Shown: positions 1 to 41,583 of the stretch, piece by piece | Layout of the letters: each line of letters opens with the position of its first letter | Numbering within the stretch: the stretch's first letter is position 1 | IMG/VR virus record: IMGVR_UViG_2700989535_000001 | Span: 1 to 42,651 of that record | Strand: one strand, 5' to 3' | From: a virus | Lineage: Duplodnaviria > Heunggongvirae > Uroviricota > Caudoviricetes | DNA length: 42,651 nt | Translations under genes and position numbers: made by a program | Notes under the pieces: model-generated | What the model was told of the DNA's origin: nothing | Seen by the model: the letters and a program-made list of their open reading frames with translations, nothing else | Databases searched by the model: none

Positions 1-1248
1 ATGGCACTGAATATTCCATTCAGAAATGCGTACTATCGTTTTGCATCCAGTTACTCATTTCTCTTTTTTATTTCCTGGTCGCTGTGGTGGTCGTTATACG
101 CTATTTGGCTGAAAGGACATCTAGGGTTGACAGGGACGGAATTAGGTACACTTTATTCGGTCAACCAGTTTACCAGCATTCTATTTATGATGTTCTACGG
201 CATCGTTCAGGATAAACTCGGTCTGAAGAAACCGCTCATCTGGTGTATGAGTTTCATCCTGGTCTTGACCGGACCGTTTATGATTTACGTTTATGAACCG
301 TTACTGCAAAGCAATTTTTCTGTAGGTCTAATTCTGGGGGCGCTATTTTTTGGCTTGGGGTATCTGGCGGGATGCGGTTTGCTTGATAGCTTCACCGAAA
401 AAATGGCGCGAAATTTTCATTTCGAATATGGAACAGCGCGCGCCTGGGGATCTTTTGGCTATGCTATTGGCGCGTTCTTTGCCGGCATATTTTTTAGTAT
501 CAGTCCCCATATCAACTTCTGGTTGGTCTCGCTATTTGGCGCTGTATTTATGATGATCAACATGCGTTTTAAAGATAAGGATCACCAGTGCGTAGCGGCA
601 GATGCGGGAGGGGTAAAAAAAGAGGATTTTATCGCAGTTTTCAAGGATCGAAACTTCTGGGTTTTCGTCATATTTATTGTGGGGACGTGGTCTTTCTATA
701 ACATTTTTGATCAACAACTTTTTCCTGTCTTTTATGCAGGTTTATTCGAATCACACGATGTAGGAACGCGCCTGTATGGTTATCTCAACTCATTCCAGGT
801 GGTACTCGAAGCGCTGTGCATGGCGATTATTCCTTTCTTTGTGAATCGGGTAGGGCCAAAAAATGCATTACTTATCGGAGTTGTGATTATGGCGTTGCGT
901 ATCCTTTCCTGCGCGCTGTTCGTTAACCCCTGGATTATTTCATTAGTGAAGTTGTTACATGCCATTGAGGTTCCACTTTGTGTCATATCCGTCTTCAAAT
1001 ACAGCGTGGCAAACTTTGATAAGCGCCTGTCGTCGACGATCTTTCTGATTGGTTTTCAAATTGCCAGTTCGCTTGGGATTGTGCTGCTTTCAACGCCGAC
1101 TGGGATACTCTTTGACCACGCAGGCTACCAGACAGTTTTCTTCGCAATTTCGGGTATTGTCTGCCTGATGTTGCTATTTGGCATTTTCTTCTTGAGTAAA
1201 AAACGCGAGCAAATAGTTATGGAAACGCCTGTACCTTCAGCAATATAG
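1..1248 (+). CDS. cscB: LacY-family oligosaccharide:H+ symporter, sucrose permease-like (host gene)
   Basis: 415-aa ORF with about 12 hydrophobic segments; recalled near-identity to E. coli CscB and clear LacY-family blocks. The csc cluster is known to lie next to argW. Confidence 0.7.
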   Translation: MALNIPFRNAYYRFASSYSFLFFISWSLWWSLYAIWLKGHLGLTGTELGTLYSVNQFTSILFMMFYGIVQDKLGLKKPLIWCMSFILVLTGPFMIYVYEPLLQSNFSVGLILGALFFGLGYLAGCGLLDSFTEKMARNFHFEYGTARAWGSFGYAIGAFFAGIFFSISPHINFWLVSLFGAVFMMINMRFKDKDHQCVAADAGGVKKEDFIAVFKDRNFWVFVIFIVGTWSFYNIFDQQLFPVFYAGLFESHDVGTRLYGYLNSFQVVLEALCMAIIPFFVNRVGPKNALLIGVVIMALRILSCALFVNPWIISLVKLLHAIEVPLCVISVFKYSVANFDKRLSSTIFLIGFQIASSLGIVLLSTPTGILFDHAGYQTVFFAISGIVCLMLLFGIFFLSKKREQIVMETPVPSAI

Positions 1249-1689
1249 ACGTAAACTTTTTCCGGTTGTTGTCGATAGCTCTATATCCCTCAACCGGAAA
1301 ATAATAATAGTAAAATGCTTAGCCCTGCTAATAATCGCCTAATCCAAACGCCTCATTCATGTTCTGGTACAGTCGCTCAAATGTACTTCAGATGCGCGGT
1401 TCGCTGATTTCCAGGACATTGTCGTCATTCAGTGACCTGTCCCGTGTATCACGGTCCTGCGAATTCATCAAGGAATGCATTGCGGAGTGAAGTATCGAGT
1501 CACGCCATATTTCGCTATCAGGATTCTGTGTGATGGTTACATCGCCCGGCCCAGGGCTGTTTAGTCATCAGCGCTTTCTGACAGTGCTGAGATTTCAACC
1601 TGTTGCAGTAAAAATGAGTAGATATAAGGCAAGTGTGCTGCCAAACCCATCTTTTACGGGGTGAAGGTAGATTTCGTTTGAAGGGTATC

Positions 1690-1704
1690 TGGTGTCCCCT
1701 GCAG
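1690..1704. repeat. att core copy (TGGTGTCCCCTGCAG), excisionase-proximal prophage boundary
   Basis: Exact 15-bp direct repeat of the tRNA-Arg 3' end at 41569..41583. Confidence 0.8.
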
Positions 1705-1777
1705 ACATCTACTTGAGGCGGCAGGGGGTTGATTAGAATGGTGTTTTTTAGATGTGAGAAATATTTTACCCGCTATT

Positions 1778-1978
1778 TTACCCATTGGCGCGGCTTAAGA
1801 GCTTATTTTTGAATTCACAATGGTCACGATATAACCATCTTGCTCGCCCGTGGATAACTTTGGCTTTAGGCAGGTCTCCGGACTTAATCCGGTCATAGAT
1901 GAAGGTTTTACCGAAGCCAGTATCGGCCATGATGAATTTCAAATCAACCAGGGAATCAGGCTGTAGTTCGTGTTGCAT
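1778..1978 (-). CDS. torI: Excisionase / recombination directionality factor, TorI-like (AlpA-type winged helix)
   Basis: 66-aa ORF; recalled near-identity to KplE1 TorI (MQHELQPDSLVDLKFIMADTGFGKTFIYDRIKSGDLPKAKV...); sits at the prophage end opposite int, as in K-12 KplE1. Confidence 0.75.
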   Translation of the reverse strand: MQHELQPDSLVDLKFIMADTGFGKTFIYDRIKSGDLPKAKVIHGRARWLYRDHCEFKNKLLSRANG

Positions 1979-1997
1979 GAGTGCTATCTCCGAATAG

Positions 1998-2013
1998 GGA
2001 ATCGAACCTGCAA
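1998..2013. other. tRNA-Arg T-arm-like fragment (GGAATCGAACCTGCAA), 16/16 match to 41584..41599
   Basis: Direct sequence identity to the argW segment immediately adjacent to the att core; flanks diverge. Confidence 0.5.
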
Positions 2014-2033
2014 ATCAGGTAATAAAAAAACCG

Positions 2034-2054
2034 CATTGATGCGGCGATGGTAGG
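2034..2054 (-). terminator. Intrinsic terminator for the leftward early transcript, upstream of torI
   Basis: Minus-strand hairpin CCGCATcaATGCGG followed by a T7 run. Confidence 0.5.
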
Positions 2055-2122
2055 TCTGGATATCTTGATAAATGAAAATGCCTCATCGAGTGTGAGGCGG
2101 TGTGATTTCTTTATTTCCACTC

Positions 2123-2338
2123 TTAATGTTTGTCAGTGAATGGTTTCTCCATCTCCATTAATGCCTTATTCATCTCATTTCGTAGCTCTATAGCCATCCT
2201 GACGGCTTCAACTTGTGCAGGATGTCGGTTAATTGCTGGAGAATATCGTCGGGAGCGAAGGATTGAGAAAACAAAGATAATGCAAGCAACTATCTGAATT
2301 GCATTGCATATTATTGATACAATGTGGATTGCAGCCAT
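2123..2338 (-). CDS. Hypothetical small protein with hydrophobic N-terminus
   Basis: 71-aa ORF with an N-terminal hydrophobic stretch (about 25 aa); lies between two terminator-like hairpins, so expression is doubtful. Confidence 0.25.
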   Translation of the reverse strand: MAAIHIVSIICNAIQIVACIIFVFSILRSRRYSPAINRHPAQVEAVRMAIELRNEMNKALMEMEKPFTDKH

Positions 2339-2352
2339 CTACTACCCCAAAT

Positions 2353-2371
2353 AAAAAACCGCCATCAGGCG
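2353..2371 (-). terminator. Intrinsic terminator-like hairpin at the end of the 55-aa ORF
   Basis: Minus-strand CGCCtgatGGCG hairpin followed by a T6 run. Confidence 0.4.
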
Positions 2372-2532
2372 TCTTGGTGTTCTTTCAGTTCTTCAATTCG
2401 AATATTGGTTACGTCTGCATGTGCTATCTGCGCCCATATCATCCAGTGGTTATAGCAGTCGTTGATGTCCTCTGCTTCGATAACTCTGTTGAATGGTTCT
2501 CCATTCCATTCACCTGTGACTCGGAAGTGCAT
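2365..2532 (-). CDS. Hypothetical small phage protein (55 aa)
   Basis: ATG-initiated ORF MHFRVTGEWNGEPF..., below the track's 60-aa cutoff; ends in the terminator hairpin. Confidence 0.35.
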   Translation of the reverse strand: MHFRVTGEWNGEPFNRVIEAEDINDCYNHWMIWAQIAHADVTNIRIEELKEHQDA

Positions 2533-2604
2533 TTATCATCTCCATAAAATAAAACCCGCCGTAGCGAGTTCAGATAAAAGAAATCCCCGCGAGTGCGAGG
2601 ATTG

Positions 2605-2889
2605 TTATTCGGTGCCGATATTTACCTTTATCGCGAACACCTTTACCGGTTTATCGCCGAAGTGCGGATGTGTGATTGTCTTGATTTCATACCCTTCATA
2701 CGGGACGTCAATTCTGCGACTGAAGTCGTCGCGCTTCGGATATCCCTTTGTGATAATCAGACGGTCATACTCACGGAGCATAATTCGCTTATTCCAGTAG
2801 TCATTACACAGGCGATACTCTTCTGTTTTCTCTCCGCGAATCATGGCATCGAAGTATTCACCTTTGACGGCAAGTTGTAGGTTAGCCAC
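2605..2889 (-). CDS. ASCH/DUF3850-like (PUA-fold) small protein
   Basis: 94-aa ORF; pattern GEYFDAMIRGEKTEEYR...LREYD...GY resembles the ASCH-like family seen in phage early regions (recalled). Confidence 0.5.
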   Translation of the reverse strand: MANLQLAVKGEYFDAMIRGEKTEEYRLCNDYWNKRIMLREYDRLIITKGYPKRDDFSRRIDVPYEGYEIKTITHPHFGDKPVKVFAIKVNIGTE

Positions 2890-3184
2890 GGTTAACCTCC
2901 TGCGGAGTAGCCTTTACAAGCACTGGTGTAAATCCATCTTCATTAAGGTTATGAATATAGACTTCCGTTCTCCTGCGCTCTTCAACGTTTAATATTGTTT
3001 CTGGATCATAAACCCATACTTTCATTCGACTATTCCATGAAGAAATCGCTTCAGATTTAGTTCGTTTTTCTGGTCCTTGGGCACCACATTTGCATGACAC
3101 ATAGCGCATTTTCCCTCTGATACTGAATGAGTATCCGATGTTAAGCACAGTGGAACCACAGAATGGGCAGCGATATAGATTCAT
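2882..3184 (-). CDS. Lar-family restriction alleviation protein (zinc-ribbon N-domain) with C-terminal extension
   Basis: CPFCGS...CKCG cysteine motif typical of Lar-family proteins; overlaps neighbours by a few nt (operon packing). Confidence 0.6.
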   Translation of the reverse strand: MNLYRCPFCGSTVLNIGYSFSIRGKMRYVSCKCGAQGPEKRTKSEAISSWNSRMKVWVYDPETILNVEERRRTEVYIHNLNEDGFTPVLVKATPQEVNRG

Positions 3185-3666
3185 AAATCATCCACCTTAG
3201 GCGCAGCTGAGACAGCAACATTCCAGAACTCAGAAAACATATTGTATGCACCAGATAGATTGGAAGTGGCATACCCTCCAAGCTCACTTCTAATCTGAAC
3301 GGCTCTCATCATTTCCGGGGTTAACTCCTTCGGCACCATAACCCAACCATCCGGAGTTACCGGCACTGGCTTGGCGGTATAAAGCGGTGTTATATCTGCC
3401 CGAAAATTACATGCTTTATGCAGACGTACCCACCGTTCGACTTCTGCTTTGTCAGAATACATACCAGTGAACGTGTTATATTCACGATCAATTTGCGTGA
3501 ATGTTACCTTCCACGCCACCGGTTCTGCTTCCAGCGATGCCAGCGCCAACTTGAACGCCTGAAGCCAAATGGCACTGTTGGTATCCAGTCCAAACGGTAA
3601 TTCATCACGATTGGCTTCGTATTCAGCGATAGTTTGCTTCAGCCATTCTTTGGTTAGTTCAGCCAT
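3181..3666 (-). CDS. Hypothetical early-region protein
   Basis: ORF taken from the internal Met (MAELTKEW...), which starts 5 nt after the upstream gene's stop; the longer version would overlap the upstream gene. Confidence 0.5.
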   Translation of the reverse strand: MAELTKEWLKQTIAEYEANRDELPFGLDTNSAIWLQAFKLALASLEAEPVAWKVTFTQIDREYNTFTGMYSDKAEVERWVRLHKACNFRADITPLYTAKPVPVTPDGWVMVPKELTPEMMRAVQIRSELGGYATSNLSGAYNMFSEFWNVAVSAAPKVDDL

Positions 3667-3670
3667 ATCC

Positions 3671-4123
3671 CTAATTCCCCTTGATGCTGACTTTGACGCC
3701 AACCTTGCGAATCTCATCGGCGCATCTGTTCACGATACTCCGGTGAAACTCACAAAAAATTTTCGCCGACTGCGGCCCTAATGGGTGAACATCGTGCGCA
3801 CGCGGCAGTACAACCTCCCGCGCCTCCATGTCAGCAATCCGCTTGTCTTTGGCTTCCAGTTCATCCAGCAGTGCCAGCACAGTAGCCGGATTGGCTGCAG
3901 CGATGAATTCAGCATTGGCCTGCTGTTCCATTTGGAAATCTTCATCGAAACCGCTTTCAGGATGCGCTCCTTCAATTCTGCAAATAGGAATATATCCAGC
4001 AACTTCACGATGAATTAGTGCATCATCACCATCAAATCGGCCCTTTCCATATTCGAGCGACCACTCACCACACGTTGCTTTTTCTGCCGCCTCACGCAGT
4101 GCCTGATAGTCAATCTTGCTCAT
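3671..4123 (-). CDS. Ead/Ea22-like protein
   Basis: 150-aa ORF; N-terminus MSKIDYQALREAAEKAT.GEWS is the recalled signature of Ead/Ea22-like lambdoid proteins. Confidence 0.6.
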   Translation of the reverse strand: MSKIDYQALREAAEKATCGEWSLEYGKGRFDGDDALIHREVAGYIPICRIEGAHPESGFDEDFQMEQQANAEFIAAANPATVLALLDELEAKDKRIADMEAREVVLPRAHDVHPLGPQSAKIFCEFHRSIVNRCADEIRKVGVKVSIKGN

Positions 4124-4364
4124 TGGATGACTCCTGCTTTTCTGCCTTCAACACCATGCGAGAACCATCATCCAGCTCCCACACTATCTCACCACCTTCA
4201 GCCATGACCAGTTGCCACACCAATTGAGCAGCCTCATTGGTAACATCACGACCTGGATCATTGCCAACGCGCATACGTCCACCTTCAACATCGCGCATTT
4301 TTGCCAGCATGATAGTTTTTGATAGCGGTGAAAAACCAAGCTGTAGTCGTGCTGAATTACTCAC
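4110..4364 (-). CDS. Hypothetical early-region protein
   Basis: 84-aa ORF; start overlaps the upstream stop (ATGA). Confidence 0.45.
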   Translation of the reverse strand: MSNSARLQLGFSPLSKTIMLAKMRDVEGGRMRVGNDPGRDVTNEAAQLVWQLVMAEGGEIVWELDDGSRMVLKAEKQESSNEQD

Positions 4365-4951
4365 TGGTTGCCTCCTTTGCGAAGCTGGTCGGCGAACAAA
4401 CGTACACTAGACGCTTCACTGCGTAGAAACTTAACGGCATAATCAAAACCACCTCGTTCTGCGTCGTCTGCTCCGTTGTCGAGGTTATCTGCGTACATCT
4501 CTACCCCCTGCGCCCGCACTTCAGCCAGGAAAGCATCGGTGGCTGGGGTTTCTGGAATGGCGTCTGGAATAACCTCTGAGTAGACGCGTTCCATTGCCGA
4601 CTCCCATCCGTAGTAACAAGCCGAATAGCCGTCGCGCTGGTAGCCGTGGTCTTCAACTCCACATCCCATGCCCTGGTCATGGTATTCAGGCTGATTGTCG
4701 GGATTAATGCAGTATTCAATGACCGACTTCATCCCCGCATTCTCCGCTGCCAGCGCAGTGCACTTGGCCTCAAGGTTATCAATCGTGATTCCAGCAGAAC
4801 GACACTCCCGCAACGCCGTTTCCAGTTTTGATTCAAGTTCACCGAACTTACGGACAAGGTATTCAGCGTTTGTTTCGTTAACCTTTAAATCTCGTGGGAT
4901 GCATTTACCTTTCAGAAAACCATCCATCTCAATTAGTGACATTTGTTTCAT
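4361..4951 (-). CDS. Hypothetical early-region protein (acidic, coiled-coil-like N-terminus)
   Basis: 196-aa ORF tightly coupled to its neighbours. Confidence 0.55.
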
Positions 4952-5130
4952 TTTTTCCCACTCCGAAACATCGCATTCAGATATTTGTTTTGATTCACTG
5001 AAGGAAAAGAATTTCTCTTAAGCAATTCCTCTCTCGATGGCATTGGCTTTACGCGTTGGCGAATAATCATTTCTGCCGGAAGAATGCCGGGATTGTATGC
5101 AAGTCCTCTCATGGTAAATTCCTCAGTCAT
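4948..5130 (-). CDS. Hypothetical small protein
   Basis: ATG at 5130 overlaps the stop of the upstream ORF (AATGACTGA); about 60 aa. Confidence 0.35.
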
Positions 5131-5416
5131 TACTGATAGCGCCATAGCGTGAGCGGTAATTACGCAGGCGCGGGTCAATTTCAGGGAAGTGGGTATATGT
5201 GGCTTTGCGGAATGGTCGGATTGATGTCTGGTAAATTCGCTCGAGTTCTTCTTTCTCTGCAAGCCATATACAATGGCGAAATTCCTTTTCCTCTTTCGTT
5301 TCCTGCGGTAGAGACATTATTCGATCGTAGTTTTTTCTGAATTTATCCAGCACCTCCGATACGGAATTGCCGGAACAGCGGCGCGGGTCATCCGCACCAT
5401 ACAGAGGCGCTGGCAT
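5123..5416 (-). CDS. Hypothetical early-region protein
   Basis: 97-aa ORF with an AGGAG RBS 6-10 nt upstream. Confidence 0.5.
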
Positions 5417-5432
5417 GTTTTTCTCCTGTTGA

Positions 5433-5981
5433 TTATTTAGCTAATTTTTTCCAGATTGCTGAAACGTATTTGGCTTGGTGAATGGCATCATCAAGCGCGT
5501 TGTGGCGAGTTCCTTTGAATGGCATATCTCGCTTAGGGTCGAATCCTATTACCTTCCCAAGTTCGACGATTGTTCTTACGTCGCGGTCATTCCACCACTG
5601 CCACGGAACTGGCTGCCCTGTCAGCGAATAACTGTTTCGGAGAATAACGCAGTCAAATGATGCTCCATTCCCCCAAACCTGAACGAATTTGTGGTTAGCG
5701 TTCTTTATGATGAATTCAGATAACCATGAAAGAGCCGTTGAAAGCTCCTGAGTGTTGCTGGTTAGCGATTTTCTGGCTTCTTCACTCTGTTCCAGCCACC
5801 ATAAAATCGTTGAAGCGTCAGGACGCGCTCGATATCGCATTGATGACTCAAGCGAGATATTTACCGAGAACTCTTCTCCTGTTTCTCCGGTATTCGGGTC
5901 AAAGAATACCGCCCCAATAGAAATAACTGGCGCGTATGGCCCGTTGCCCATTGTTTCAAGGTCAACCATCAAGTGATTCAT
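5433..5981 (-). CDS. DnaQ-like 3'-5' exonuclease (DEDD family)
   Basis: N-terminal Exo I motif (MVDLETMG) and later H..DA motif (HNALDDA) typical of DEDDh exonucleases. Confidence 0.7.
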   Translation of the reverse strand: MNHLMVDLETMGNGPYAPVISIGAVFFDPNTGETGEEFSVNISLESSMRYRARPDASTILWWLEQSEEARKSLTSNTQELSTALSWLSEFIIKNANHKFVQVWGNGASFDCVILRNSYSLTGQPVPWQWWNDRDVRTIVELGKVIGFDPKRDMPFKGTRHNALDDAIHQAKYVSAIWKKLAK

Positions 5982-5989
5982 GTAAGTCC

Positions 5990-6505
5990 TTAAATTGCGT
6001 GAATAGCGTGACGAGGGAAGGGGAGAGTTACTGGTGCAAAGGGGATATCGTCGTCAAAATCCATAGGTGGTTCGCTGTGATTTCCCTGCTGCTGAGGTTG
6101 CTGTCTTTGTTGCTGACCATTATTTCGCTGAGGTGAAGACTGTTCATTGCCTCCTTGCTTGCCACCAAGCATTTGCATGGTTCCACCAACGCCCACGATG
6201 ACTTCGGTAGTGAACCGATCCTGTCCGCTTTGATCCTGCCATTTTCTTGTCCGCAATTTGCCTTCAAGATAAACCTCAGAGCCTTTTCGCAGATATTCGC
6301 TGGCAATTTCTGCCAGTTTCCCGCTCATTACCACGCGGTGCCACTCCGTCTGCTCCTTTTGCTCTCCAGTTTGCTTATCACGCCATTGTTCTGACGTAGC
6401 AACGGTAAGGTTTGCAAATGCCGTTCCTGATGGTGAATATCTGATTTCTGGATCATGCCCAAGGCGACCAATAATGATCACCTTATTTACGCCTCTGCTT
6501 GCCAT
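5990..6505 (-). CDS. ssb: Single-stranded DNA-binding protein with a 15-aa extension after the DDDIPF tip
   Basis: Strong recalled similarity to E. coli SSB over the OB fold ([10 protein letters not shown]...TEWHRVV...[13 protein letters not shown]), Gly/Gln-rich linker and MDFDDDIPF motif, then [15 protein letters not shown] before the stop. Confidence 0.9.
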
Positions 6506-37389: not shown

Positions 37390-38820
37390 TTATTTTAACT
37401 TTATTACAATAATGTCTTTGGTTGCATGAATGCTATATATATTATTGTCAGAAATTAGATTCCCATTATCTGATATTGATACAGCTTTGTCTGCAGCTGA
37501 TGGCTCAGCGCTAACAACATCTTTTAGTCCATTTCTCATCAATGTAAAAACTCCGCCATCATATCTATTTGTAAATATAGGTGGCAATATATCAGATATT
37601 ACTGGAAATATTTTCTTGTTTATGCTTGCGACAGATGAGTTCTTCGCGTAGCCGTCAATAACAATAAAATCGAGATATTTGGCTTTACTATTATTAATAT
37701 CATTGATCATTTGAAGTGATAAATTATTTTGGAATTTAAATTCTTCTCGTGAAGCATTAATTGTCGCAAAGAATATGGACAGCATGGGAATTGCAATGAA
37801 TAATGACAGCAAGTAATTAATTCTCCAATTAAGGATCACTGAGCCAATCAAAGGAAGCGCCATTATAAAGACACCAAATCCGATAAATATCCTTGATACA
37901 AATACTGGTGATTTGCCAAACACAGACACACCAAAAGAGGAAAAGAAGCAACCAAATATAGATATTGCAATAAAAAATAGTAATTGAAATTTCTTTCGTT
38001 TAATAGCGAAAAACACAGATGATATGGCTATTATTGATAGAAATATATAAAGAGGTATTCCAATACCACTATGAAGAGCAACATCAATTTTTCTAACTGC
38101 GTTAATTATATTCTCATAAACATTGATGACTCCACCTTTATTTAATTCAACTATTTGAGCATATTTCGAGAAGTTATTGTTTAAAGATAATGATTCAAGT
38201 ATTAATTTTGAGTATATAATATATGAAGAGACTACACATGTGACAGATAATAGCACTCTGCTGGCTATTGATGTAAACTTTTCCCCTTTCAATGCTTCCA
38301 TTGCAACCACTACTGATGCAAGCCCAATGTACACATTTATTGAGGCCTGATACAATCCAAGCGATATTGTTAGGCACAGTAGTGATGATATGGCGAATGT
38401 TCTACTTTTTGTAAAAATGAATGGAATAGCAGAAAGTGCAATAGATAAAATCATAAATGCACCATCATATCTAAATAGCATATTAGACAAAAGAAAAGGG
38501 TTAAGCATAAATATTGCAAAAGTTATATTAACTATAACCCCATCTTTTGATAGTATATTTTGCAATGCCTTTGTTAGTGATATAACAAGAAGCACAGACG
38601 TTAAAACTAGTGGTAGTGGGTAAATATCTGGTATGCTTTCAGATCTAAAGAAAATAAATGATTTATAGAATAAATCTGCAAAAGGCCTTCCATCTTCAGA
38701 CCAACCATAATATCCCCAATACGATCTAAATACATCATCATAGTAGTAAATATTACATGTTATAATAAAAAACAAAATAACAAATAGTATGAAGTAGTTG
38801 ATTTTAATTGTTTTATTCAT
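37390..38820 (-). CDS. Serotype-specific O-antigen glucosyltransferase (GtrC-type polytopic membrane protein)
   Basis: 476-aa ORF with many TM segments, immediately downstream of gtrB in an operon; very AT-rich. Confidence 0.65.
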
Positions 38821-39737
38821 TTTTTCTTTCTCTTAACAATGAATCTAGGTCTATCTTTGCACTCTATGTAAATTCTTCCTATATATTCACCAAGCACGCC
38901 AATTCCAATGAGTTGAATCCCTCCTAAGAAAAGAATGGACACAATAAGTGATGGGTATCCCCTAACCGGATTGCCAAAAACCAAAGTGTCGATAATCATC
39001 CATGTGCCATATAAAAGAGCCATTCCTGCGACGAATAGCCCAATATAAGTCCACATACGCAGAGGGAAAGTGGAAAAGCTTGTTATACCTTCAAGTGCTA
39101 GGTTCCATAATTTCCACCCATTGAATTTCGTGCTGCCAGCTACACGCTCAGCACGGACATACTCAACAACATCTGTATCCCCACCAACCCAACTAAGAAT
39201 ACCTTTCATGAAAAGATTGCGTTCTGGCAGGAGCTTAATATTCTCCACTACCTCGCGAGACATCAGCCTGAAATCTCCAACATTTTCCTCTATCTGCGGA
39301 TTGCTTATTTTATTGTGGAGCTTATAGAACCACTCAGCCGTTTTTCGCTTCAGTCTGCCATCCGTTGAGCGGTCAGATCGTTTAGCAAGCACCATATCAG
39401 CGCCTGCCTGCCATTTTTCAATCAGTTGAGGTATTACCTCAATCGGGTCTTGCAGGTCAACATCAATAGGAATAACAGCATCGCCTGTTGCATGGTCTAA
39501 CCCTGCAAACAATGCTGGTTCTTTACCAAAGTTGCGCGTAAATGACAGCGGAACAACTAGCGGATCAGAAACAGCCAGAGCGTTAATTATTGACTCTGTA
39601 GAGTCTTTGCTGCCGTCATTTATGAAAACAATTTCCACCTCATATGGCTTCAACTCTTCGAATTCACGTACCGTTTTATAAAAAATTGGTATCGCTTCTT
39701 CTTCATTGAAGACAGGAACTACAAGAGATATCTTCAT
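38817..39737 (-). CDS. gtrB: Bactoprenol glucosyltransferase GtrB (GT2 family)
   Basis: Recalled near-identity to E. coli YfdH/GtrB ([17 protein letters not shown]...); two C-terminal TM helices. Confidence 0.9.
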
Positions 39738-40096
39738 TTCGCATCCCTAAAGACAATGAACTTTGAATATACGAAACCGCACACCAGGCTGATGGCGGAG
39801 AAAGTGATAAGGGTTAGCATCGGGGGAAGTGCGCATCTATCAGCAGCCCATCCAACAGTTGCACTCAGTGTTCCCATGAACCCGACATATAACATGTAGC
39901 GCATCGTTGTAGTCGATGCTTTGAATGTGAATTTTGCATTCGCGAAGAAGCTAAAACTCACAGCCACAACGAAACCTGCGAAGTTTGCCAGAGCCTGATT
40001 TGTATGCGCGGCATAGATACATACACCAAAAACCACCCAGTGTATAAGTGTGTTCAGCACACCAATCGAGGTGTACTTTGCAAATAGCTTTAACAT
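39734..40096 (-). CDS. gtrA: GtrA flippase (bactoprenol-linked glucose translocase)
   Basis: 120-aa 4-TM protein; recalled near-identity to E. coli YfdG/GtrA. Confidence 0.9.
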
Positions 40097-40249: not shown

Positions 40250-41407
40250 TCACTCCACATTTTCATCAATCCAGTCCGCCCACCATTGCATCATTTCTCT
40301 GCGTTTATCGAGATACTGAGCATGGTTGTAAATCCCGCGCACAGATCCGCCGTTGGCATGTGCCAGTTGCACTTCAATAGCATCAGCAGGCCATTCGTGC
40401 TCGTTCATAATCGTGCTGAATTCATGCCTGAATCCGTGACCGCTTTCCAGACCCTCATAGCCGATTTGTTTGATCACAAGCAATACCGCGTTCTCGCAGA
40501 TTGGCTTCTTCTTATCGTTGCGCCCGGCAAAAACAAACTCTGATACTGGTTTGGTGATTGAGCTTAGCGTAGTGAGAAGTTCAACTACCTGGTCTGACAT
40601 AGGAACCACATGAATTTTGCGTCCCTTCATCACATTGGCGTCGATGGTGATAATCCTGTTTTCAAAATCGACGTTCTTCCATTGCATGGAACGAAGCTCT
40701 TTCGTTCTTAGGGCTGTGTAGCGTAAAACTTTGGTCGCAATGAGCGATACGATACTTCCTGAAAATGTTGCCAGTGCTTTGTTGAATGCAGGGATCTGGT
40801 CTGCAGGAAGAAACGGGAAGTTCTTCTTGCGGTATCCCTTCATGGCGTCAGCAAGGTCAGGTGCCGGGTTATATTTAGCCCTGCCGGTGACAATAGCGTA
40901 ACGGAAAACCTCGCCGCATCTTCTGCGGGCTTTGTTGGCTCTCTCCATTGCGCCGCGATCTTCAAATCTGCGGATTACTTCCAGCAGTTGCATCGGCTCA
41001 ATATCTTGAATTTCAAGGCCGCCGATGATAGGTAAAATGTCGTCATCAAACATTTTTGCAAGTTCAGTCGCATACCCTACTGACCATACTTGCTTCTTGT
41101 GCTCGTACCATTCTTTGTAAATCGCACTAAAGGAATTGTTGTTAGACGAAGCCTTTTTCGCTTTTACCGGATCGATGCCAACCGAGATGTCTTTCCTCGC
41201 AGTCCATGCTTTATCCCTTGCCTCCTGCAAAGTCATAAGCGGATATTTTCCTACGGTCAGTATTTTTTCCTTACCGTCAATCTTGTAGCGAAGCTGCCAT
41301 ACCTTTTTCCCGGATACAGGGACATAAAGGTACAGGCCATTACCATCGAGAAGGCGGTATGGTTTTTCTTTCGGCTTTGCTGCTTCAATCTGCTTAACGG
41401 TGAGCAT
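40250..41407 (-). CDS. intS: Tyrosine integrase (P4-type, IntS-like)
   Basis: Recalled similarity to K-12 IntS from MLTVKQIEAAKPKEKPYRL; catalytic HGFRHEF and RGIYNHAQY motifs; adjacent to the tRNA and att core. Confidence 0.85.
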   Translation of the reverse strand: MLTVKQIEAAKPKEKPYRLLDGNGLYLYVPVSGKKVWQLRYKIDGKEKILTVGKYPLMTLQEARDKAWTARKDISVGIDPVKAKKASSNNNSFSAIYKEWYEHKKQVWSVGYATELAKMFDDDILPIIGGLEIQDIEPMQLLEVIRRFEDRGAMERANKARRRCGEVFRYAIVTGRAKYNPAPDLADAMKGYRKKNFPFLPADQIPAFNKALATFSGSIVSLIATKVLRYTALRTKELRSMQWKNVDFENRIITIDANVMKGRKIHVVPMSDQVVELLTTLSSITKPVSEFVFAGRNDKKKPICENAVLLVIKQIGYEGLESGHGFRHEFSTIMNEHEWPADAIEVQLAHANGGSVRGIYNHAQYLDKRREMMQWWADWIDENVE

Positions 41408-41568
41408 GGGTAAAAATCCGGTGGGTAAAATTATTTTATCCACTTTTTACCCGTCATGGAGTGCGGCTGTCAACGATCTGACGCGAACCATTACGAACTG
41501 TGAATCTACGGAAGGCTTGATATTCAGGGGATTTTGCGGACTGGTACGGATGGGAGCGAACTGATAAA

Positions 41569-41583
41569 TGGTGTCCCCTGCAG
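41569..41583. repeat. att core copy (TGGTGTCCCCTGCAG) overlapping the tRNA-Arg 3' end
   Basis: Exact direct repeat of 1690..1704. Confidence 0.8.

Follow-up and report, generated by a model that had tools for sequence, protein, structure and literature searches.

In this article I discuss positions 2123-5416 of a 42,651-nucleotide (nt) stretch of viral DNA (record IMGVR_UViG_2700989535_000001, all of which was analysed and is called the window below), which very probably make up the accessory stretch at the distal end of the leftward early (PL-type) operon in a complete Sf6/HK620-like prophage of 39.9 kb (Lederbergvirus, P22-like) at argW in Escherichia coli. In P22 such a stretch is known as the 'ea' region, in lambda as the 'exo-xis' region. 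Here it holds ten minus-strand open reading frames (ORFs), numbered g1 to g10 in leftward order, and it is a mosaic of exchangeable modules common to Sf6, HK620, HF4s and lambda. As such it is ordinary and already known, a hypervariable accessory block of the sort that P22-like prophages normally carry, without anything of a new kind. Its gene order and almost all of its proteins can be found in public records, where the proteins bear the family names given here, and descriptions of the corresponding regions of Sf6, HK620, P22 and lambda date back two decades. In practice it is useful as a neat and compact illustration of mosaic accessory arrays.

Prophage boundaries and operon layout

The limits of the element are given by a 15-bp attachment (att) core direct repeat, TGGTGTCCCCTGCAG, found at 1690-1704 and again at 41569-41583, where the right copy is the 3' end of the tRNA-Arg(CCT) gene argW; together the two copies delimit the 39.9-kb prophage, which the sucrose permease gene cscB adjoins on the left. 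Between the repeats are encoded a tyrosine integrase (40250-41443), a CI-like repressor and a P22-type tailspike with its head-binding domain, and DNA searches put the element among the Sf6/HK620-like Lederbergviruses. Upstream of the array, on the same leftward strand, come an N-like antiterminator, cIII, kil, an Erf-like annealing protein, SSB and, immediately before abc2, a gene at 5433-5981 for an Rv2179c-like protein of the 3'-5' exoribonuclease fold (PF16473, 2.9e-73) that holds the place of abc1 in P22. The array is thus the distal part of a leftward operon, as the initial annotation had proposed, and it runs towards the TorI-type excisionase gene torI at 1778-1978. Minus-strand ORFs of at least 54 residues span 97% of 2123-5416, whereas 500 shuffles of the same bases averaged 22% and never exceeded 52%, and this agrees well with the dense same-strand array of short genes that the same annotation had placed between the exonuclease gene and torI; its count of about nine genes has to be raised to ten. 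The gene models of g3 to g8 and g10 were also looked up by exact sequence, and each of the seven has an identical protein record at NCBI, which in five cases bears the family name arrived at here.

The first eight genes (5416-2605) are tightly packed, every junction among them being an overlap or a gap of at most 10 nt. A gap of 16 nt leads from the exonuclease gene into g1, and 10 nt separate g1 from g2; then follow an ATGA overlap (g2/g3), a GTGA overlap (g3/g4), a 14-nt overlap (g4/g5), a 4-nt gap (g5/g6), a second ATGA overlap (g6/g7) and an 8-nt overlap in which the start of g8 reaches back into the end of the Lar-like gene g7. The last two genes are separate modules, g9 lying beyond a 72-nt gap that holds two strong hairpins with a U run after each, and g10 a further 26 nt on. 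A clear GGAG, GAGG or AGGAGG motif precedes seven of the ten starts and a weaker G-rich motif the other three, examples being the AGGAG Shine-Dalgarno motif upstream of g1 and an AGGAGG placed 6 nt upstream of g4, and a scan of the minus strand inside 2605-5433 returned no terminator-like or promoter-like site. Because of these junctions, the Shine-Dalgarno motifs and the scan, g1-g8 can be regarded as one packed block in which translational coupling is reasonable. The coupling first suggested for the whole operon thus remains plausible for g1-g8, which lie closely enough for it, but not for g9 and g10, which hairpins set apart. Similarly, of the two kinds of junction that had been cited in its favour, ATGA occurs at the two places just named, whereas there is no true TAATG stop/start, the only such string close to a junction lying inside the abc2 frame (AGT AAT GAC TGA).

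Mosaicism among Sf6, HK620, HF4s and lambda

The match to any single record is incomplete: coverage of window positions 1250-6000 reaches 44% in the best phage record, and that of positions 1-6000 reaches 77% in the best complete E. coli genome. Gene presence was compared by tblastn in Sf6, HK620, HF4s, Bas106, 683R2, E. coli MB06231 and lambda, and each gene has its own distribution. The DUF2737 gene g2 has a close copy in all six Lederbergvirus-type relatives compared and abc2 (g1) in Sf6, HK620, HF4s, Bas106 and MB06231, though not in 683R2, while the g3 type is close in HK620 (69%) and MB06231 (59%) and distant in Bas106 (48%) and HF4s (42%). Close copies of the DUF7446 gene g4 were seen in 683R2, of the Lar gene in Sf6, of the ASCH gene g8 in HF4s and 683R2, and of g10 in MB06231. 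The Ead/Ea22 N-terminal domain of g5 is close in MB06231, Sf6 and HK620 and distant in Bas106, 683R2, HF4s and lambda (24 residues in the last), and the orf55 homologue g9 is close in lambda, HF4s, 683R2, Bas106 and MB06231, with remnants in Sf6 and HK620.

The nearest described counterparts are Sf6 genes 19-25 and HK620 hkaD-hkaJ, which occupy the same place, from abc2 to a torI-type excisionase gene, on the same strand and in the same order (abc2, DUF2737, Ead/Ea22-type genes, Lar-like, torI), and whose copies of g1, g2 and g7 are 94-98% identical to those of the present prophage in one or the other phage. The differences are those of gain, loss and fusion. HK620 lacks the Lar and ASCH genes; Sf6 lacks DUF7446 and g10, keeps orf55 as a remnant, and has one fused gene 21 where the prophage described here has g5 and g6. 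This Sf6 gp21 consists of the N-terminus of g5 (123 residues) followed by the C-terminus of g6 (96 residues), as is seen when window positions 3181-4123 are set against positions 2596-3276 of Sf6 L002. Sf6 is also without 244 bp of the ASCH gene (window 2611-2854, against about 2270-2274 of Sf6 L002), and since the first 35 nt and the last 6 nt of that gene are kept, what follows the Lar-like gene 20 of Sf6 is the remnant of a deletion.

Farther away, the lambda exo-xis region (orf60a, orf63, orf61, ea22, ea8.5, orf55) has the same position in a leftward early operon, with the recombination genes on one side and xis on the other. It has in common with the prophage the Ead/Ea22 N-terminal domain and, at 95-96% identity, orf55 together with the hairpin region upstream of it; orf60a, orf61, orf63 and ea8.5 have no counterparts here, and the C-terminal part of lambda Ea22 is unrelated to that of g5.

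Products of the array

The first gene, g1 (5123-5416, 97 residues), is an abc2. It matches PF11043 over positions 1-97 of 97 (7.6e-63, 209 bits) as well as phrog_656, annotated 'abc2 anti-RecBCD', and it is about 89% identical over 97 of 97 residues to the P22 Abc2 chain of PDB 8B1T (2.2e-57), the gene lying downstream of an Erf-type recombinase in P22 also. Cryo-electron microscopy of the P22 protein placed its Pro68, a residue kept in g1, in the active site of the host protein PpiB, and showed Abc2 bound to RecC near the Chi-recognition domains; RecBCD is proposed to be redirected by it so as to serve recombination by Erf (PMC9836394). By this likeness g1 would bind RecC and alter the activity of RecBCD.

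The seventh gene, g7 (2882-3184, 100 residues), is the equivalent of Sf6 gp20, to which it is 97% identical, and it passes the curated Lar models TIGR03655 (59.5 bits, cut-off 39.6) and PF14354 (36.0 bits, cut-off 28.6). Its four cysteines C6, C9, C31 and C33, together with E45-A46-I47 and W50-N51-x-R53, show little or no variation among 12 relatives and align with CPFCG...EALERWNKR of RalR, the Lar protein of the Rac prophage; a 46-residue C-terminal extension is conserved among the relatives in E. coli and Enterobacter. The Lar-type zinc ribbon with a C-terminal extension that had been recognised from the sequence alone is thus a sound call. Compared with RalR, g7 is 34% identical over the 53 residues of the zinc-ribbon domain and occupies the same place, ralR lying between recombination genes (recT) and xis in the order recE-recT-ralR-rcbA-xisR-intR; RalR has CxxC as its second cysteine pair where g7 has CxC, and it is without the extension. 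Furthermore, ralR is paired with the small RNA (sRNA) RalA, whereas a search of Rfam gave no RNA family within 1250-6000 at E<=1 and thus no RalA-like antitoxin RNA. Lar of Rac, according to what King and Murray reportedly found in 1995, alleviates restriction of the EcoKI type, and as a member of this family g7 probably dampens type I restriction.

The eighth gene, g8 (2605-2889, 94 residues, GTG start), had been called an ASCH/PUA-like protein, and the call is upheld by structure more than by profile scores. Against Pfam ASCH (PF04266) g8 reaches 14.3 bits, below the gathering threshold of 21.2 (E 0.068, residues 6-28 only), and only seven of 68 members of its family match at E<=0.01, whereas NCBI names its relatives 'ASCH domain-containing protein'. 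An AlphaFold model built from an alignment of these 68 sequences, which came from the exhaustive profile search described below, has a mean predicted local distance difference test (pLDDT) score of 92.2, whereas a shallow alignment, limited to sequences with 72% identity or more, yielded an unusable one (pLDDT 51.5). The former is predicted to adopt a beta-barrel fold as in solved ASCH structures, and when it was submitted to Foldseek the first 13 PDB matches were all ASCH proteins, with weak E-values of 0.04-0.5 and template modelling (TM) scores of about 0.5. Between helix alpha1 (10-18) and strand beta2 (23-27) of the model lies G19-E-K21-T-E-E24-Y-R26, which reads as GxKxxExR, the ASCH-specific motif described for EOLA1, ASC-1 and ZmASCH (PMC6803910); across the 68 sequences K21 never varies, and conservation at G19, E24 and R26 is 90% or higher. 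Because of the fold matches and the motif, I accept g8 as a predicted ASCH/PUA-like protein, its Pfam score notwithstanding. The solved ASCH proteins of E. faecalis (3IUW), PH0355 (2Z0T), E. coli YqfB (9KYF) and Z. mobilis ZmASCH (5GUS) have the small beta-barrel PUA-like fold and the GxKxxExR motif in common with g8, but with sequence identities of only 12-18%, and g8 forms a large family of its own, an exhaustive profile search returning 1231 clusters at 50% identity. A PDB search with the profile of this family gave nothing meaningful, and neither did sequence searches of the PDB with g3, g5, g6, g7 and g8. Judged by fold and motif, g8 probably binds or acts on nucleic acid or a modified nucleoside.

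Several observations around the ASCH gene deserve mention in their own right. A 201-residue protein encoded elsewhere (P0138) has an Ead/Ea22 N-terminal domain joined to an ASCH domain, and its fusion runs through an in-frame Shine-Dalgarno region (RRLTV); a natural Lar-ASCH fusion was sought among the long ASCH homologues, one of which (P0164) has an N-terminal zinc ribbon but no Lar match. Antisense to g8, the plus-strand ORF 2593-2880 (95 residues) matches phrog_20945 at 3e-54. It was rejected as a gene, the opposite strand encoding a well-folded protein of the 1231-cluster family, and is almost certainly a shadow ORF that has been called as a gene in some phage annotations; a strong PHROG match is, because of this case, not in itself evidence of coding.

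Between abc2 and the Lar gene lie five genes, two of which belong to families of the DUF type. The 54-residue product of g2 (4948-5112; HK620 HkaI / Sf6 gp23 type) matches PF10930 (DUF2737, 8.6e-31) and phrog_1117 (1.7e-36), both alignments beginning at the ATG at 5112, and is 94-98% identical to the Sf6, HK620 and Bas106 copies; g4 (4110-4364, 84 residues, GTG start) matches PF24233 (9.2e-19) and phrog_1578 (1.7e-33), and its exact NCBI record is a 'DUF7446 family protein'. With abc2 and the lambda orf55 homologue g9, these are four genes among those for which no recognisable family had been seen by the initial annotation, and to that extent it needs correction.

The other three are of the Ead/Ea22 type and are modular proteins. 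The Ea22-like assignment made earlier for g5 (3671-4123, 150 residues) stands for the N-terminal part: residues 2-101 match positions 1-88 of the 139-position profile PF13935 (Ead_Ea22) at 1.3e-24, with 87.8 bits against a threshold of 27, and the N-terminal 123 residues are 80% identical to Sf6 gp21. With lambda Ea22 itself BLASTP similarity is limited to residues 1-24, and g5 does not have a C-terminal domain like that of lambda Ea22, solved by nuclear magnetic resonance, nor any PDB sequence match at E<=1. In g6 (3181-3666, 161 residues, 'EaA'/DUF551-neighbour type; phrog_5117, phrog_60 and phrog_660) it is the C-terminal 96 residues that resemble Sf6 gp21, matching its C-terminus with 67% identity, and 34% identity is seen with HF4s EaA, while g3 (4361-4951, 196 residues, HK620 HkaH / HF4s 'EaE' type) matches phrog_614 at 8.2e-57 and is 69% identical to HK620 hkaH and 42% to HF4s EaE. 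PHROG families 368 and 60, like Sf6 gp21, join the N-terminus of g5 to g3-like or g6-like C-termini. Searches of Pfam, NCBIfam and the PDB gave no match to g3, and g6 has no Pfam match even at E 10. The names given in some public records, 'hNH endonuclease' for g3 and 'DUF551 domain-containing protein' for relatives of g6, were not adopted, neither having Pfam support even at E 10.

Beyond the packed block, two tandem intrinsic-terminator-like hairpins occupy 2540-2604 (scan hits 2603-2582 and 2571-2552; fold energy -25.4 kcal/mol, z -6.6), and they belong to an orf55 module (window 2350-2608) that is 96% identical to lambda. The gene of this module, g9 (2365-2532, 55 residues), is 95% identical to lambda orf55 (lambdap35/NP_597778.1), matches phrog_676 at 9.3e-39 and has homologues in 86 phage records. 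The last gene, g10 (2123-2338, 71 residues), lies on an insertion of about 329 bp (about 2030-2358) relative to 683R2, HF4s and lambda, which sits exactly in the U run of a small hairpin after orf55, with GCGGTTTTTT(T)ATT on both sides, and ends in a hairpin of its own (2045-2030) with a U run (a T run in the DNA). Terminator-like hairpins downstream of g10 occupy 2030-2098, upstream of the torI promoter region (scan hits 2098-2080 and 2045-2030; fold z -3.8). The product is a candidate single-pass membrane protein, residues 1-28 being strongly hydrophobic and followed by RSRR. Of 5426 complete E. coli genomes 69 carry the module, which the Prokaryotic Genome Annotation Pipeline (PGAP) leaves unannotated there; in the phage collection it is confined to IME10 and Sf101, unannotated in both. 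Since all relatives of the protein are at least 96% identical, conservation cannot show whether g10 codes, and its match to phrog_15342 is weak evidence of coding because the antisense ORF of the ASCH gene matches a PHROG as well. On balance g10 is somewhat more probably a real gene than a spurious one.

Proposed working and competing accounts

As distal accessory segment of a PL-type operon, the array would be expressed as follows, by homology to P22, lambda and HK620. Upon infection, or upon induction by loss of the repressor, transcription would start from PL and be made resistant to terminators by the N-like protein, and the transcript would cross erf, ssb and the exonuclease gene, and then the array, towards torI/xis. 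With the Shine-Dalgarno motifs of g1-g8 lying within the end of the preceding gene, these eight would probably be translated together as one block. Abc2 acting on RecC would redirect RecBCD, so that phage DNA ends might be spared and passed to Erf. The gene g9 follows the terminator-like hairpin pair and g10 sits on its small insertion with its own terminator-like hairpin, and the N-like protein would allow read-through of these hairpins towards xis, as is established for lambda. In the record of HK620, tL terminators and a PI promoter activated by cII are annotated for the corresponding stretch.

Several points weigh against so simple a scheme. Translational coupling of g1-g8 is a reasonable inference from geometry alone, and read-through of the hairpins at 2603-2552 and 2098-2030 would depend on antitermination. 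The usual partner of abc2 in P22, abc1, is absent here, the Rv2179c-like exonuclease standing in its place. RalR, the Lar prototype, has also been described as a toxin with non-specific DNase activity that forms a type I toxin-antitoxin pair with the RalA sRNA, by which it is controlled (PMC4041452), and 'restriction alleviation' may accordingly not be the only or the main activity of RalR. Furthermore, no function-tested report was found for eight of the ten ORFs.

What the array does for the phage is a separate question, and the first answer to be weighed is that it mainly tunes development, that is the choice between lysis and lysogeny and the timing of induction, by way of host or phage transcription, as has been proposed for the lambda exo-xis genes. 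In lambda Ea22 favours lysogeny whereas other exo-xis genes favour lysis (PMC7093339), and g5 has the Ead/Ea22 N-terminal domain; lambda Orf55, so close to g9, has been modelled, speculatively, as a binder of RNA polymerase like T7 Gp2 (PMC8614690); and at its far end the array meets the region of xis and the cII-dependent PI promoter. However, g5 has only its 24 N-terminal residues in common with lambda Ea22 and a different C-terminal domain, four of the lambda genes have no counterpart, and the targets of Abc2 and Lar are host nucleases, not development. As an account of the whole array this is possible, though rather doubtful; as a role it is at least as well supported as anti-defence, by the published work on the lambda equivalent.

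A dedicated anti-defence island, in which most or all of the ten proteins would each neutralise a host immune system, is unlikely. The general statement of the initial annotation, that early-region arrays of this kind are a typical home for anti-restriction and anti-defence genes, is reasonable in view of Abc2 and Lar here and of the accessory-region screens of Silas et al., who treated the accessory regions beside abc2 as counter-defence hotspots; the array is also hypervariable between close relatives, as expected of arms-race genes. Anti-defence activity is shown for Abc2 by its close homology to the P22 protein, and it is plausible for the Lar-like g7, these being the two members in counter-defence families. 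The other eight ORFs, on the other hand, match no family with a known counter-defence role in Pfam, PHROG or NCBIfam, and in experiments the equivalent region of lambda and Phi24B affected lysogenisation and induction, not defence (PMC7093339, PMC3824215). A defence system the array is not, since PADLOC gave no defence-system match for any of its ORFs.

It is less likely still that g9 and g10 are morons of benefit to the lysogen and stand outside the early operon, g10 being for example a membrane protein that excludes superinfecting phage. The terminator-like hairpins that bracket both genes, the discrete insertion carrying g10 with its own hairpin and U run, and the hydrophobic N-terminal segment followed by RSRR are what such a view would predict, but a consensus scan of the minus strand across 2030-2420, a crude one, gave no sigma-70-like promoter upstream of either gene, and g10, without diverged homologues to offer a conservation check of coding and uncalled by PGAP in complete genomes, has a PHROG match that counts for little by itself.

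Finally, the idea that g8 is a new kind of counter-defence effector and the Ead/Ea22 N-terminal domain a general carrier for interchangeable effector domains, with g10 as, separately, an unannotated membrane protein excluding other phages, is very improbable, and a search of the literature on phage ASCH proteins in anti-defence found nothing relevant. The ligand of g8 might be a modified nucleoside, a nucleic-acid mark or a nucleotide signal of host immunity, which it would bind or hydrolyse. If any of these genes did counter a defence system, the catalogue of counter-defence would gain a new family, and in the case of ASCH a large one.

Outside the accessory segment, the prophage carries next to its integrase gene a minus-strand cluster at 37390-40096 of gtrA, gtrB and a GtrII-type glucosyltransferase gene, of the kind that modifies O-antigen, and the prophage is, from this cluster, probably O-antigen-converting.

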